IMG/VR virus record: IMGVR_UViG_3300009132_000002
Strand: one strand, 5' to 3'
Source of the DNA: a virus
Lineage: Duplodnaviria > Heunggongvirae > Uroviricota > Caudoviricetes
Length of the DNA stretch: 32,936 bases
Part shown: in pieces, positions 7,532 to 32,864 of the stretch
How the letters are laid out: each line of letters opens with the position of its first letter
How positions within the stretch are numbered: the stretch's first letter is position 1
Translations under genes and position numbers: made by a program
The notes under the pieces: model-generated
What the model was told of the DNA's origin: nothing
What the model saw: only the letters and a program-made list of their open reading frames with translations
Databases searched by the model: none

Positions 7532-7906
7532 TTATAAATTATCTTTTTCTAAATCCCATGGTTGGTTTCCAGTAAATGGTTCAAAATCGGCACCTGGCAT
7601 TAATAAACACGCCATACCATCTTCAAACACCATAATAATACTACTTCTACCAGTATCTTGATTTACAAATGTCATAGTTTTGCCTGGGTAAAATTGACCA
7701 GTAGTAGCTTCCAAAACATACCCACGACTAGAAAATAATAATCCTTCTCTACCACTTGCAATAACCCCATACACATTTTCAACGGAATCACAGGGCAAAC
7801 TTATAATTATATTTTTACTTGTATTTTCCTGCGAATAAGCAATTGACGTAAAACAAATTATAGTCCACATAAAACATATTAAAATCCATGTTATTAGAGT
7901 TTTCAT
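7532..7906 (-). CDS. Secreted hypothetical protein
   Basis: ATG 7906 behind AAGGA; signal peptide MKTLITWILICFMWTIICFTSIAYS; Cys pair (LPCD, MACL). Confidence 0.75.
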   Translation of the reverse strand: MKTLITWILICFMWTIICFTSIAYSQENTSKNIIISLPCDSVENVYGVIASGREGLLFSSRGYVLEATTGQFYPGKTMTFVNQDTGRSSIIMVFEDGMACLLMPGADFEPFTGNQPWDLEKDNL

Positions 7907-7924
7907 ATTATCATCCTTTTCAAA

Positions 7925-7954
7925 ATAAAAAAGGAGGGTTAACCATGACCCTCC
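7925..7954 (-). terminator. Rho-independent terminator
   Basis: GGAGGGT-loop-ACCCTCC stem (7954-7933) followed by TTTTTT on the minus strand. Confidence 0.85.
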
Positions 7955-8029
7955 GCGCACCTATTAAGCAGTGAACCTTTTGAGCGGCACGTTGTGTTTG
8001 AAACTCCACCCAATTATCATAGATAATAC

Positions 8030-8814: not shown

Positions 8815-8946
8815 TTGTTATTTCCCTTGTTTTTTTGTTGTTTTTATGTAGACTCTTGCAGTTTCCGAACACGTCTACAGCATTCCTCATGACCCATCAG
8901 CAAGTTTGGTTCCTTTTCGTAAAAAGGACAATCTCTATTTTTATAT

Positions 8947-9150
8947 GATAGGAGGGACTTGCGATTACCCTCAACCCGGTCAACAGTCGCTCTGACAATT
9001 TCCAGGAGCCTAGCATTGGATAGTTACTTCCAATTTATACTGCATCTTCATGTCTCCACGCTCATGCAGTGCCACCACAGCTACTAGCCAAGTTCGGGGC
9101 CTGTAACCCCTCTTCCTTGCACTATCTAACATAGGTCCGTCGACCTAGCT
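8947..9150 (-). ncRNA. Candidate ~200-nt structured non-coding RNA (family unassigned)
   Basis: GC-richer non-coding stretch with five hairpins: 9132-9147, 9096-9110, 9039-9070, 9016-9033, 8952-8972; no ORF in the track. Confidence 0.6.
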
Positions 9151-9163
9151 ATTCTATTAATAC

Positions 9164-9460
9164 TGCCACTTTTCTGTTGCTAAGCAAGTGGCCAGCTCCC
9201 TGTGATTATGCCGCTAAGGCAAATCCAGATGGTGCAAAATTATCGTTTGCATTTGTAGTTTTTGACCGAATAACGTAGGTCAACACGATAAACTCCACTC
9301 AATATTCACACCTGTCGATCCTATTTCGACCCCATCATAAACACACTTTATATTGAGAGGTTCTTACGGCTTCAGTGCTGCCTCATAGTGTGTTTATGGT
9401 GGAGTCGCTGGGTACTGCCCCCAGGTCCAGTATGTGTCCACGTTGCTTCAACGTTTACAG
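9164..9460 (-). ncRNA. ssrA: Circularly permuted (two-piece) tmRNA, alphaproteobacterial type
   Basis: Acceptor piece first (T-arm CTGGG-GGCAGTA-CCCAG, then CGACTCC-A-CCA ending 9397), 63-nt intervening hairpin, then coding piece starting GGGGTCG at 9333 (G3:U70 Ala pair), AGGATCGAC, and tag frame 9250-9206 = ANDNFAPSGFALAA-stop; outer ends approximate. Confidence 0.95.
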
Positions 9461-9465
9461 ATTAT

Positions 9466-9494
9466 ATAGTATCATATAATGAGTAATAAGTAAA
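9466..9494 (-). promoter_or_regulatory. Sigma70/T4-early-type promoter for tmRNA
   Basis: TTTACT-17 nt-TACTAT with TG at the extended -10; start would fall near 9460. Confidence 0.75.
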
Positions 9495-9530
9495 CCATTT
9501 ATTAATCATTAATAAAATGTAGTAAATATG

Positions 9531-29500: not shown

Positions 29501-29529
29501 ATTATATCACACCTACATACTTATGTAAA
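29501..29529 (-). promoter_or_regulatory. Sigma70/early-type promoter
   Basis: TTTACA-17 nt-TATAAT with TG extension. Confidence 0.75.
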
Positions 29530-30233
29530 CCACTATTTTCAATTGCAAATAATATTCTTTGCGTATCCTTCCAGTCTTTTACCTTATAATTACAAGAACC
29601 ATCGTTCCTTTGTTCAATTTCATCAGCCAAAGGATAATCGTTGCCACCATATTCCATCTTATCACCAAAAAATGAGATTGGACCTTTAATAAAATCAGCC
29701 ACCTGTCTTTTATCAGAATTTAAGCGTAAAATATCAATGCCTGTTTCACCTGCGACCTGTGCCCTATAATAGGAAAATGTTTGATTAAATCTACGAGCAA
29801 TGTCTTTTCTTTCGTTTTTATGCTGATCCCATTGTGTATATAAAAATCTTTGTTCGAAATCTGCACCTCTGCCAACAATACTAAAATTTACTAATCCGGG
29901 TCGATATTCAATATGTTGTCCAGTTCTTATATTAAACTTACTAGCAGTTAACTCTTTTTTTAGCCAATCAACAGCATCACGAGGAAGATCCCATGTATTA
30001 GTATAAATTTCTTCTCCATTTTGCCAAATGCTATTACCGCTACAATTAAAGCATTTAATAACACTTTCACATATTTTACTACCAACCTGCTGTATTGTTT
30101 TCTCGTAATCAGATCCGGTTACAAGATATACATTATACTTTTCTATAAATTTCAAAAAGAATTTTTCAAAGTCTCTATCCATTCTCATTCGGCTTGGTGT
30201 TAAAGTTCCGTCTACATCAAATACATAATTCAT
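29502..30233 (-). CDS. HAD-IIB phosphomannomutase (eukaryotic PMM-like)
   Basis: YVFDVDGTLT, LVTGSD, IEYRPGLVNFSIVGR, FFGDK...GGNDYP; ATG 30233 overlaps the gp43 stop (ATGA). Confidence 0.85.
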   Translation of the reverse strand: MNYVFDVDGTLTPSRMRMDRDFEKFFLKFIEKYNVYLVTGSDYEKTIQQVGSKICESVIKCFNCSGNSIWQNGEEIYTNTWDLPRDAVDWLKKELTASKFNIRTGQHIEYRPGLVNFSIVGRGADFEQRFLYTQWDQHKNERKDIARRFNQTFSYYRAQVAGETGIDILRLNSDKRQVADFIKGPISFFGDKMEYGGNDYPLADEIEQRNDGSCNYKVKDWKDTQRILFAIENSGLHKYVGVI

Positions 30234-32812
30234 CCAAAAAAGTCCTCCAGTGTTTGCACATCCTTGACAGACCATCCAACGGCTTCAAGAATAGGATTAA
30301 GTGGTTCAATAAAAGTTTTTTCAAATTGCATCTCATAGTCTACATATTTATGCAGATTTAATTCTTCAGGCAGATAGTCAGGAAAGGAAATTACATTCTC
30401 ACGAATAGGATTCGGAAGCTTCATATATGTAAATTTAATCTTTTCTCCGTTTTGTATCATAATATATTTCTTATCTAGTGCCTTATCTTTAACGTGATGG
30501 TTATATAAAAGTGCACCACGAACGTGAATAGGTGTGGTTTTTATTGTTGCTGTTTGATTACCCGACGACCATTGTTTAGAGTGATTTGAGTTACAATAAA
30601 TATTCTTCTTATGCGAAAACTTACTAATATCAGAAACACCACGTGGAAATGCCACGGCTTCAGGTGGTAAAGATTTAAACTTTTCTTTAAAGTCATTAAT
30701 ATATCTACGAGTTTCTGTTTCAGTACTAGTAATAATAACCTTAAATATTTCTTTAAACTTTTCTCGGACTACCTCAGGAGTTGATGATTTAATAGCCTCA
30801 ATACCCATCATCTTTAACTTAGGTTCTGCATATTGAACACCTTCATTATTGTGTACGTTAAGTATATAGCGTTTTTTTGCAGTCCATATACCACGATCAG
30901 CAATAACTTCTCTGCCCATTTCCATGCGTGGAGTATAACCATTAAGTCTATGATACAAACCGTCATACGCTTTAGCAATAATTTTCTCAAAGTGGTCTTG
31001 ACATAGTTTATCAATGGCTTTTACTGGATCTTTTGGTTTTAGTTTAGAAACAAGAGGTCCAAAATTAATATAAACTGAATCTGTATCAATAGCAATAACA
31101 TAATCAAAATCATCAGTCTTAAGGATCTTATTCATCTCTTGATTAATAGCACGCTCTGCCCACTTGATGGAAAGTTGACCAGTTAAGGTTACACTCTCAG
31201 CAAGAGCATTATCAAAGTATTTAAAATGTTTATTAGCAAGAGCGCCATAAAGAGAATTAAGTAAAATCTTAATTGACATTTGGTTATTTTCTAGCTGGTT
31301 AATTTCTGCTTCAAGATATGAAGATTTTGTTTTTTCATATTGTGATTTGGCATCCAACATCTTTTTCTTAATTACACTTCTTTCCGAATAGTAATCAACA
31401 ATAAGTTCTGGAATTACACCTTGCTTTTCTCTTGAGAAAGGAACACCACTTGCACAAACAGAATATTCGCTATCTACTTGAGTTTCACCATTTAAATAAT
31501 AATCAACACCTTGTTGGAATGTTCTCCAAGTTTTATTACGAATAATAGTCTCTGGAGATATATTAGATTGTACAATAATATTTGGATATAGAGAATTTAA
31601 ATCGAACGATACTACCCAGTCATGTGCACCGACTTGAGGATCTTTTACATATCCGCCCTCGATAATGTTAGGATTAGAATTGTTTACATAAGCAACTCTT
31701 TGTATTTGTTCTACTGGAGATACAATGTTTTTTGAAAGAAGTCTTCGATAAAGAATTGACTCCCAGATAGATGTTGTACCAAATGTTTCAGAAAGATTAG
31801 TACCCGCTCTGTAAGCCATAGTCATTGCTAAGTTAATAAGACCCATTTTTTGATCAATACGATCTACAAGTTGAACATCCTTAATATTATAATCAATAAA
31901 TTTTTGATGGTCATTCTTATATAAAGTATACAAATTACCATGTTCTTCATATGATAGTTTCTTTTCTCCAAGAACGGTATGTGCTACGTGATCTAGTTTA
32001 TACGATTCTTGAGTTCCATATGAATATCCAAACTTTTTAAATAGTTCAAGATAATCTGCTTGTTGAATACCAACAATCTCATGATTAACCTGAGGTCTGC
32101 CCATGATTGTGGTATTTCTTTCATTAACAAGTTTCCACGGGGATAGTTTATTAGCAGCTTCTTCCGTACCAATAATTTTAATACGATTAACAAGATATGG
32201 AATATCAAAAAAACGAATATGCCAGCCAGTAATAATATCAGGATAATTTTTAGTCCAATATGTTAAGAATGAAGCTAAAAGATGATTCTCAGATTCACAG
32301 TGATGATATTGTATCTGTTCACCTCTCATGTCAAGCTCAGTTTTTGCAGGATCATACTCGTCTAAACCCCAGACTTGATATATCGAAGATTTACTAGACT
32401 TGAGAGTAATAGATATAATTGGATATGCTGCTTGTTCCGGAACAGGAAATCCATCATCCGAAGCAACCTCTATATCAAAGTTTACTACATTTATACTACT
32501 TGGATTAAATTTAATATCATCAGGAAACTTATCTGCAATAAACTGATGAATATAATTACGTGTGCCGTATATCTTTACACCATCCATTTCTGAATACTGT
32601 TCAAGAAATTCTTTAGCTTCACGCATATTCTCAAATTGTACAGGAGATATATTACCCCCGTCAAATGATTTTATTTCTGTGGGATCTTTAGATGCCACCC
32701 AGAATTTTGGTTTAAATTTATAACGTTGATTTATTGGTGTACCGTTAGGGGAATATCCACGATAAAGAATAGAATTGCCATAACGGTTCACAGAAGTGTA
32801 GAATGAATTCAA
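30230..32812 (-). CDS. 43: T4 gp43-like family B DNA polymerase
   Basis: Exo FDIEV, SFDLNSLYP, KILLNSLYG, AIDTDS, KKRY; C-terminal clamp peptide TLEDFFG. Confidence 0.98.
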   Translation of the reverse strand: MNSFYTSVNRYGNSILYRGYSPNGTPINQRYKFKPKFWVASKDPTEIKSFDGGNISPVQFENMREAKEFLEQYSEMDGVKIYGTRNYIHQFIADKFPDDIKFNPSSINVVNFDIEVASDDGFPVPEQAAYPIISITLKSSKSSIYQVWGLDEYDPAKTELDMRGEQIQYHHCESENHLLASFLTYWTKNYPDIITGWHIRFFDIPYLVNRIKIIGTEEAANKLSPWKLVNERNTTIMGRPQVNHEIVGIQQADYLELFKKFGYSYGTQESYKLDHVAHTVLGEKKLSYEEHGNLYTLYKNDHQKFIDYNIKDVQLVDRIDQKMGLINLAMTMAYRAGTNLSETFGTTSIWESILYRRLLSKNIVSPVEQIQRVAYVNNSNPNIIEGGYVKDPQVGAHDWVVSFDLNSLYPNIIVQSNISPETIIRNKTWRTFQQGVDYYLNGETQVDSEYSVCASGVPFSREKQGVIPELIVDYYSERSVIKKKMLDAKSQYEKTKSSYLEAEINQLENNQMSIKILLNSLYGALANKHFKYFDNALAESVTLTGQLSIKWAERAINQEMNKILKTDDFDYVIAIDTDSVYINFGPLVSKLKPKDPVKAIDKLCQDHFEKIIAKAYDGLYHRLNGYTPRMEMGREVIADRGIWTAKKRYILNVHNNEGVQYAEPKLKMMGIEAIKSSTPEVVREKFKEIFKVIITSTETETRRYINDFKEKFKSLPPEAVAFPRGVSDISKFSHKKNIYCNSNHSKQWSSGNQTATIKTTPIHVRGALLYNHHVKDKALDKKYIMIQNGEKIKFTYMKLPNPIRENVISFPDYLPEELNLHKYVDYEMQFEKTFIEPLNPILEAVGWSVKDVQTLEDFFG

Positions 32813-32835: not shown

Positions 32836-32864
32836 ATTATATCATATTATGAGGTATTTGTAAA
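32836..32864 (-). promoter_or_regulatory. Sigma70/early-type promoter for gp43
   Basis: GTTTACA-17 nt-TATAAT with TG extension; GGAGG RBS downstream. Confidence 0.8.

Follow-up and report, generated by a model that had tools for sequence, protein, structure and literature searches.

The locus described here lies in a 32,936-nt stretch of viral DNA (IMG/VR record IMGVR_UViG_3300009132_000002, Caudoviricetes), referred to throughout as the window, and comprises an early-type promoter, a circularly permuted tmRNA gene (ssrA), a manA-like RNA, a gene for an outer-membrane beta-barrel-like protein (OMP) and an intrinsic terminator (Table 1). The open reading frames of the window are short, tightly packed and all on the minus strand, and the GC content is around 34%. 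The flanking genes encode a T4-type family B DNA polymerase (PolB), UvsX, a gp41/DnaB-type helicase, ThyX and a cell-wall (endolysin-type) hydrolase, and the window also encodes glycosyltransferases and sugar-nucleotide enzymes. On this gene content the window is assigned to the replication module of a T4-like myophage, and its bearer appears to be a lytic marine phage of that type; no integrase is found among the window genes. Among isolates, the PolB comes closest to that of Phage C48C1 (Kyanoviridae), at 54% identity, and it shares about 45% identity with the cyanomyophage polymerases. An ENA assembly contains the same 2.3-kb stretch, with the tmRNA gene and its flanks, in a 99.9% identical copy, and a Logan assembly contains the downstream part of this stretch unchanged (100% identity). 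Since the locus recurs in other assemblies, a chimeric host fragment, the objection that the first-pass annotation of this DNA had raised against its own reading, is excluded.

Table 1. Features of the tmRNA locus, listed in the direction of transcription (window coordinates).
Feature	Position	Strand	Details
Early-type promoter	9466..9494	-	-35 TTTACT 9494-9489 (GTTTAC from 9495), 17-nt spacer, -10 TACTAT 9471-9466
Acceptor piece, 62 nt	9397..9458	-	P2 3'-side strands, T arm and acceptor 3' strand; Rfam alignments
T arm CUGGG-GGCAGUA-CCCAG	stem 9424-9420 / 9412-9408; loop GGCAGUA 9419-9413	-	Sequence reading
Acceptor 3' strand, discriminator and CCA	CGACUCC 9407-9401; A 9400; encoded CCA 9399-9397	-	Sequence reading
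Intervening sequence (spacer), 63 nt	9334..9396	-	ORF-less; predicted to be excised on maturation
Spacer-closing stem	AAACACAC 9395-9388 / GUGUGUUU 9346-9339	-	100% paired, 2 compensatory pairs
Coding piece	9162..9333	-	Acceptor 5' strand, D-loop-like AAAUAGGAUCGAC, P2 strands, PK1, tag ORF, 3' hairpin
Acceptor 5' strand GGGGUCG	9333-9327	-	With CGACUCC gives a 7-bp stem bearing G3:U70
Pseudoknot PK1	9262..9287	-	Hairpin CGUG / UACG, 9287-9284 / 9277-9274
Tag reading frame	9206..9250	-	Resume codon GCA 9250-9248, 14 codons = ANDNFAPSGFALAA, stop TAA 9208-9206
3' hairpin of coding piece	9192-9165	-	Conserved GCAACAGAA loop; RF01849 match
Divergent manA RNA motif	8942..9147	-	RF01745 full-length, 44.1 bits, E 2.5e-10; directly 3' of the tmRNA
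Outer-membrane beta-barrel-like protein gene, 258 aa	8038..8814	-	Signal peptide, beta-strand periodicity, C-terminal Phe
Strong intrinsic terminator	7933..7954	-	7-bp stem with 5 G-C pairs, then T-run; first convincing one downstream of the tmRNA promoter

Run over the whole window, ARAGORN makes one tmRNA call, of the permuted type, at 9115-9491 (-), and gives the tag as ANDNFAPSGFALAA followed by a stop codon. The alpha_tmRNA model of Rfam (RF01849) matches 9162-9519 (-) over its full length (model positions 1-355) with 115.2 bits and an E value of 5.6e-31, and is the top-scoring model within its Rfam clan. The tmRNA_permuted model (RF04321) matches 9206-9458 (-), again over its full length (model positions 1-213), with 119 bits. 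Both of these scores are well past the gathering thresholds of 50 bits for RF01849 and 47 bits for RF04321, and the ARAGORN and alpha_tmRNA searches that had been proposed as a check are therefore positive. The 3' boundary given by ARAGORN, 9115, overshoots into the manA-like RNA and is rejected because that stretch belongs to this separate element. The 3' end of the coding piece is placed only roughly, at about 9165-9150, and homology to relatives stops at approximately 9150-9160. The span of 9164-9494 originally given for the gene is a good fit.

The circular permutation is seen in the order of the parts, in which the acceptor piece is followed by the spacer and then by the coding piece. The T-loop GGCAGTA, the encoded CCA, the alanine stem GGGGTCG/CGACTCC with its G3:U70 pair and the resume codon GCA, all of which the first-pass annotation had read from the letters, are found on the minus strand as described, and the G:U pair is invariant in an alignment of seven sequences. 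In the pseudoknot PK1, pairing of the hairpin stem reaches 93% in the same alignment (helix 7). The partner of the loop UUGACC (9283-9278) is GGUCAA (9267-9262), just 5' of the resume codon, a pairing that was read by eye rather than counted by a tool. As judged from its sequence, it is nearly certain that the gene is a complete alphaproteobacterial-type two-piece ssrA.

The gene is conserved well beyond the window. In all 15 syntenic viral contigs that share the downstream gene (15/15), a permuted tmRNA precedes that gene. In the structure alignment, which consists of the window and its six closest relatives, pairing is complete (100%) in the acceptor, T and spacer-closing stems of all seven sequences, and six base pairs are changed on both sides, as in GGGGUCG/CGACUCC, GGGGCUG/CAGCUCC and GGGAGCG/CGCUUCC. 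The acceptor and T stems account for four of these compensatory pairs, and controls in which the partner strand was slid give far lower pairing in every case. Compared with the tags of relatives, that of the window shows four to five synonymous codon differences and one conservative change (F to Y), and this synonymous excess fits a translated sequence. Identity to the six relatives amounts to 97-99% over the promoter stretch (9530-9459, 72 nt), 73-95% over the mature tmRNA segments and 18-55% over the spacer interior. These substitution patterns indicate that selection keeps both the RNA structure and the tag peptide of the gene. The central claim of the earlier reading, a two-piece tmRNA that is circularly permuted, encoded by the phage and equipped with its own promoter and degradation tag, is upheld by ARAGORN, the two Rfam models, the phage flanks, the full set of syntenic relatives, the covariation and the promoter class described below.

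The tag had been likened to that of Caulobacter, given in the literature as AANDNFAEEFAVAA. The likeness holds at the ends, where the window tag starts ANDNFA and finishes A-x-AA, and fails in the middle, which reads PSGFAL in the window and EEFAV in Caulobacter. Among the 76 tags that ARAGORN predicts over contigs L001-L121 (120 viral contigs and the locus of phage Melnitz, discussed below), most start ANDN and end ALAA. A related clade, L230-L238 (e.g., L230:3362-3722), has an unusual 20-residue tag, ANDNFKPELSFDFDGVLEAA, whose end is LEAA rather than ALAA, which might alter protease recognition. The two-piece tmRNA of Caulobacter crescentus was reportedly the subject of work by Keiler, Shapiro and Williams in 2000, and it is in Caulobacter that the processing and function of a two-piece tmRNA are proven. 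The window gene shares with this tmRNA the order of acceptor piece, spacer and coding piece, the T-loop type, the G3:U70 pair, PK1 and the conserved GGGGnCGAAAUAGGAUCGAC core. It differs in being virus-borne without SmpB, AT-rich, devoid of its own terminator in this lineage, and known from sequence alone.

The promoter TTTACT-17-TACTAT that had been proposed for the gene is present, and its predicted start at about 9459 is the first base of the P2 helix and the 5' end of the acceptor piece. It falls into the motif class (G)TTTAC[AT]-N17-TAnnAT, which occurs eight times on the minus (coding) strand against 0.6 expected. Other copies precede PolB, just upstream of it, and further genes, and no copy lies from 9466 down to the low-coordinate end of the window. 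The early-promoter class, written as (G)TTTACA-N17-(GA)TATAAT, is observed on the minus strand at 32864, 29529, 24159, 23447, 19887, 18877, 11324, 9494 and other positions. GTTTAC is the -35 box of T4 early promoters, and the window motif resembles this box. The T4 late-promoter motif TATAAATA shows no enrichment in the window, with 4 matches against 7.7 expected. A generic sigma-70 scan does not list the tmRNA promoter because only 8/12 consensus positions match, a miss that, given the strong enrichment of the phage's own motif class, is not taken as counter-evidence. With a weak -10 box, TACTAT, and a second conserved TTTACT box upstream, the predicted start is approximate.

Between the promoter (9466) and the start of the OMP gene (8814), no terminator-like site is found on the minus strand. 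One weak terminator-like site is located inside the OMP gene (8269-8251, -), and the strong terminator lies just beyond the stop of this gene and before the next one. The close relative L228 has an equivalent single terminator in which the stem carries compensatory changes. From the absence of a terminator before the OMP gene and the presence of a strong one after it, we infer a single transcription unit consisting of the promoter, the tmRNA, the manA RNA where present, the OMP gene and the terminator. This predicted promoter-to-terminator unit applies to this lineage only: in the distant phage L394 the tmRNA is also directly upstream of a homologous OMP gene, but a terminator-like hairpin stands between the two. 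A mechanical ORF at 7532-7960 (-, GTG start) overlaps the terminator, and the gene calls of contig L392 put the real start at 7906.

The RNA directly 3' of the tmRNA is a divergent copy of the manA motif (RF01745; Weinberg et al. 2010, PMC2864571), a riboswitch candidate of marine T4-like cyanophages (PMC2864571, PMC9964418). Its score is below the gathering threshold of the model (44.1 vs 55.2 bits), and its fold has a z-score of -2.6. It sits in an insert of around 310 nt (about 8835-9150) that is missing from the six closest relatives, and no manA RNA is found in the scanned relatives L224-L235. A second case is provided by contig L070 (3125-3815, -), in which a tmRNA, a tRNA and an above-threshold manA RNA (65 bits) stand in a row and are followed by a gene for a 164-aa membrane-anchored protein. 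The manA RNAs of the window and L070 have in common the blocks GUGCAAGGAAGAG, GUGGUG and GUUGAGGGUAA..AGUCCCUCC. Between the two, P1 covaries (UAGGUC/GACCUA vs UACUCU/GGAGUA), as do the pseudoknot arms (GAUAG/CUAUC vs GUGG/CCAC), a covariation that comes from two sequences and therefore lends modest support. The window copy resembles RF01745 in its full-model match, its conserved blocks, its covarying stems and its 5' UTR position ahead of a gene. It departs from the family in its sub-threshold score, its place immediately 3' of a tmRNA, its lineage-specific insert and its downstream gene, whose product is an outer-membrane protein instead of one for sugar, nucleotide or photosynthesis functions. 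As L070 is an independent contig, manA RNAs may recur in phage stable-RNA clusters, some 25 loci having been scanned for riboswitch-type RNAs on the 3' side of the tmRNA. The window also contains a gene of the phosphomannomutase family (PF03332) at 29502-30275 (-), in the same phage as this mannose-associated RNA motif.

The 258-aa OMP-like protein has no Pfam or PHROG match, and none of its 46 homologs has a name. A tmRNA is found directly upstream of its gene in L224-L232 and L394, and this linkage is kept where the protein is only 42-45% identical, in L230-L232 and L394 (42% in L394). The spacer of the tmRNA gene is far more variable. The spacers of the window and of L226/L227 are short, mutually unrelated and ORF-less, and those of L224, L225, L228 and L229 are 184 nt long and contain a Shine-Dalgarno sequence and a 50-codon ORF (L224:3633-3785, L229:3621-3773), which displays six synonymous versus one non-synonymous difference. 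Small spacer ORFs are also present in many other phage tmRNA genes (L040, L054, L088, L063, L098, L110, L023; L061, L021; L235, L237). They come with Shine-Dalgarno sequences and a synonymous excess. At least four families of these ORFs recur, two of which (A and B) have their stop codon 1 nt ahead of the GGGG at which the coding piece begins. On these comparisons the tmRNA spacer appears as a variable slot, of which the window represents the empty case. The window thus combines an empty spacer with a filled trailer, and its closest relatives a filled spacer, holding the 50-codon gene, with an empty trailer. A tentative extension, which we regard as possible and somewhat doubtful, is that the tmRNA heads a composite early unit and modular cargo site. 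One promoter would then give rise to the tmRNA pieces, a manA RNA that senses a metabolite and the OMP mRNA, the stable-RNA precursor would also be a messenger, and the spacer and 3' trailer would act as swap slots for small genes or regulatory RNAs.

Two-piece alpha-type ssrA genes in phages are of a kind already published, and the window adds a divergent member. Buchholz et al. (2022) described them in the OM43 phage Melnitz (MZ577097) and in pelagimyophages, and found 53 two-piece tmRNAs, nearly all aquatic, among 18,146 phage genomes (PMC9004378); a tmRNA database of 2025 holds 79 phage tmRNAs (PMC11915505). In Melnitz, ssrA has an early promoter ahead of it and a glutamine riboswitch after it (PMC9004378), an arrangement confirmed here (RF01849, 106.7 bits; RF01739, 52.8 bits). 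The parallels with the window are close. Both concern marine T4-like myophages without SmpB. In both, an alpha-type permuted tmRNA gene stands under an early promoter within a replication/auxiliary region, close to genes for ThyX and a cell-wall hydrolase, and is followed directly on the same strand by a riboswitch-type RNA. The differences are equally clear. The window gene is 78% identical to that of Melnitz over just 43% of the gene, the Melnitz tag is ANDNYVPVDYALAA in place of ANDNFAPSGFALAA, and the manA motif and OMP gene of the window are replaced in Melnitz by the glutamine riboswitch and then gp33.

The first-pass annotation had also stated that the window lacks smpB, so that the tmRNA would use host SmpB. 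SmpB (PF01668) is indeed not found among the window ORFs, nor in any of three phage comparators, namely the close relative G404 (177 kb, 86% complete) and the complete genomes of Melnitz and C48C1; as positive controls for this search, 10/14 control genomes matched, all 10 above the cut-off. In a phage lineage without SmpB the tmRNA would have to borrow that of the host, as tmRNAs of other phages do. The missing dedicated SmpB has no bearing on RNA-family membership. C48C1, the nearest isolate, lacks a tmRNA, and within the Melnitz group ssrA is present in only 17/47 contigs (PMC9004378), so the gene is accessory and, at group level, dispensable.

The permuted form of the tmRNA had been taken to point to an alphaproteobacterial host. 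Such a host is plausible but not secure: Melnitz has an alpha-type tmRNA and infects OM43 Methylophilales, which are not Alphaproteobacteria, so the type of tmRNA does not secure the host. A BLAST search of 401 sampled alphaproteobacterial genomes finds no close counterpart of the tmRNA, the best matches being partial, 71-76% identical and mostly restricted to the T arm and acceptor. The sequences nearest to the window tmRNA are all on low-GC viral contigs. A comparison of tag and sequence phylogeny with candidate hosts had been suggested, and in a quick tree the window tmRNA falls within a clade of 43 tmRNAs that are all viral; the bacterial sample of this tree is small (19 sequences) and was chosen differently from the viral one, and therefore no donor is named. 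A search of bacterial genomes for the pattern of the tag start leads mainly to gut Alphaproteobacteria and Rickettsiales, together with a few short, low-GC MAG contigs. Two other host clues were discarded, namely a 16-mer from the P2 region, which gives only chance matches across phyla, and the homologs of the OMP-like protein, which themselves sit in phage-like contexts. The outer-membrane beta-barrel gene adjoining the tmRNA implies a Gram-negative host and nothing narrower. Several low-GC (0.34-0.39) MAG contigs contain phage-like alpha-type tmRNAs or parts of them, among them L127, L174 and L176, with Bacteroidota and Verrucomicrobiales labels, and L160/L359, from a Marinovum MAG. Being binned with unrelated or high-GC taxa, these contigs are probably mis-binned phage DNA.

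The best explanation of the locus, and one that we consider quite probable, is that it holds a resident, intact two-piece ssrA that works on host factors and adds ribosome-rescue capacity. The mechanism would be the ordinary tmRNA mechanism, and such a function is probable. By analogy with established tmRNA biology, it would depend on the SmpB, AlaRS, EF-Tu, RNase P and proteases of the host; the details of maturation given here are drawn from established knowledge and from the reviews quoted in PMC9004378 and PMC11915505. The precursor would be transcribed by host RNA polymerase early in infection and, in this lineage, would read through the manA RNA and the OMP gene to the terminator. Host tRNA-processing enzymes are expected to excise the stem-closed 63-nt spacer, with RNase P acting at the GGGG 5' end and 3' trimming occurring at the CCA, to yield an acceptor piece of about 62 nt and a coding piece of about 170 nt that would remain base-paired together. 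Host AlaRS would charge the tmRNA by way of the G3:U70 pair, and the charged tmRNA, with host SmpB and EF-Tu, would enter stalled ribosomes and restart translation at the GCA codon. The nascent chain would gain (A)ANDNFAPSGFALAA and be directed to ClpXP-type proteases of the host. For the phage, the likeliest gain would presumably be extra rescue capacity while host mRNA is being shut off and degraded, as happens under a T4-like phage, with rescue freeing scarce ribosomes and recycling amino acids for phage proteins.

Other roles for the RNA can be envisaged. For Melnitz, Buchholz et al. proposed that ssrA either sustains the hijacked translation machinery or tags host proteins for recycling (PMC9004378). 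The second proposal corresponds to a retuning of tagging, in which tagged, mainly host, proteins are degraded rapidly for their amino acids, or in which the tag has a different protease or adaptor specificity. The wide variation of phage tmRNA tags, including the long LEAA-ending tag of L230-L238, is in keeping with such a role. The tag of the window, however, is a canonical alpha-type tag that ends ALAA and so gives no hint of altered specificity. We consider this role improbable as the main explanation, and it is compatible with added rescue capacity rather than exclusive of it. Somewhat less probable still is that the phage tmRNA is a spare part that offsets the cleavage or depletion of tmRNA, tRNA or mRNA by the host or its defences. 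Phage tRNA genes have been read as counter-defence spares of this sort, the tmRNA adjoins tRNA genes in other phage contigs such as L070 and L039, and the gene is driven by an early-type promoter; against this, there is no evidence of such a defence, and no telling sequence feature, such as altered cleavage-prone loops, was found. Both ClpXP retuning and counter-defence had been put forward in the first-pass annotation, where they were speculation, and speculation they remain.

It is very unlikely that the RNA is a decoy that occupies host SmpB or ribosomes unproductively and thereby suppresses host trans-translation. The precedent is the mycobacteriophage DS6A, in which, as outlined in PMC11915505, a tag-less tmRNA-like RNA inhibits the host tmRNA. 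The RNA of the window would resemble that of DS6A in being a phage-borne relative of tmRNA that needs host SmpB, and a phage without its own SmpB would compete for that of the host. The DS6A RNA has no tag reading frame, whereas in the window gene this frame is complete and selection acts on it, and the G3:U70 pair, the CCA, PK1, the resume codon, the coding-like tag and its ALAA end are all intact and under selection. The decoy is disfavored because a conserved translatable tag would be needless for it. The weakest alternative, a functionless passenger or relic derived from a host ssrA fragment through imprecise excision or assembly chimerism, draws on the fact that ssrA is a common integration site and that prophage ends can bear ssrA fragments (PMC9004378, PMC11915505), and is effectively refuted by a gene that is full length, lies between phage genes without an integrase, is the same in independent assemblies, is conserved with compensatory changes among 15 relatives and has only the distant, partial bacterial matches described above.

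An intact, working two-piece ssrA thus remains the preferred reading. The locus adds a divergent phage lineage whose tmRNA is clearly under selection, and leaves overall knowledge of phage tmRNAs unchanged. The evidence of selection, the variation of the spacer and 3' trailer, and the defined promoter-to-terminator unit make it a usable candidate for tests of processing, charging and tagging. It also carries the warning, with Melnitz as the counterexample, that a host should not be inferred from the type of tmRNA. More broadly, phage-borne tmRNAs suggest that ribosome rescue may be a limit on viral replication in the streamlined bacteria of the ocean.
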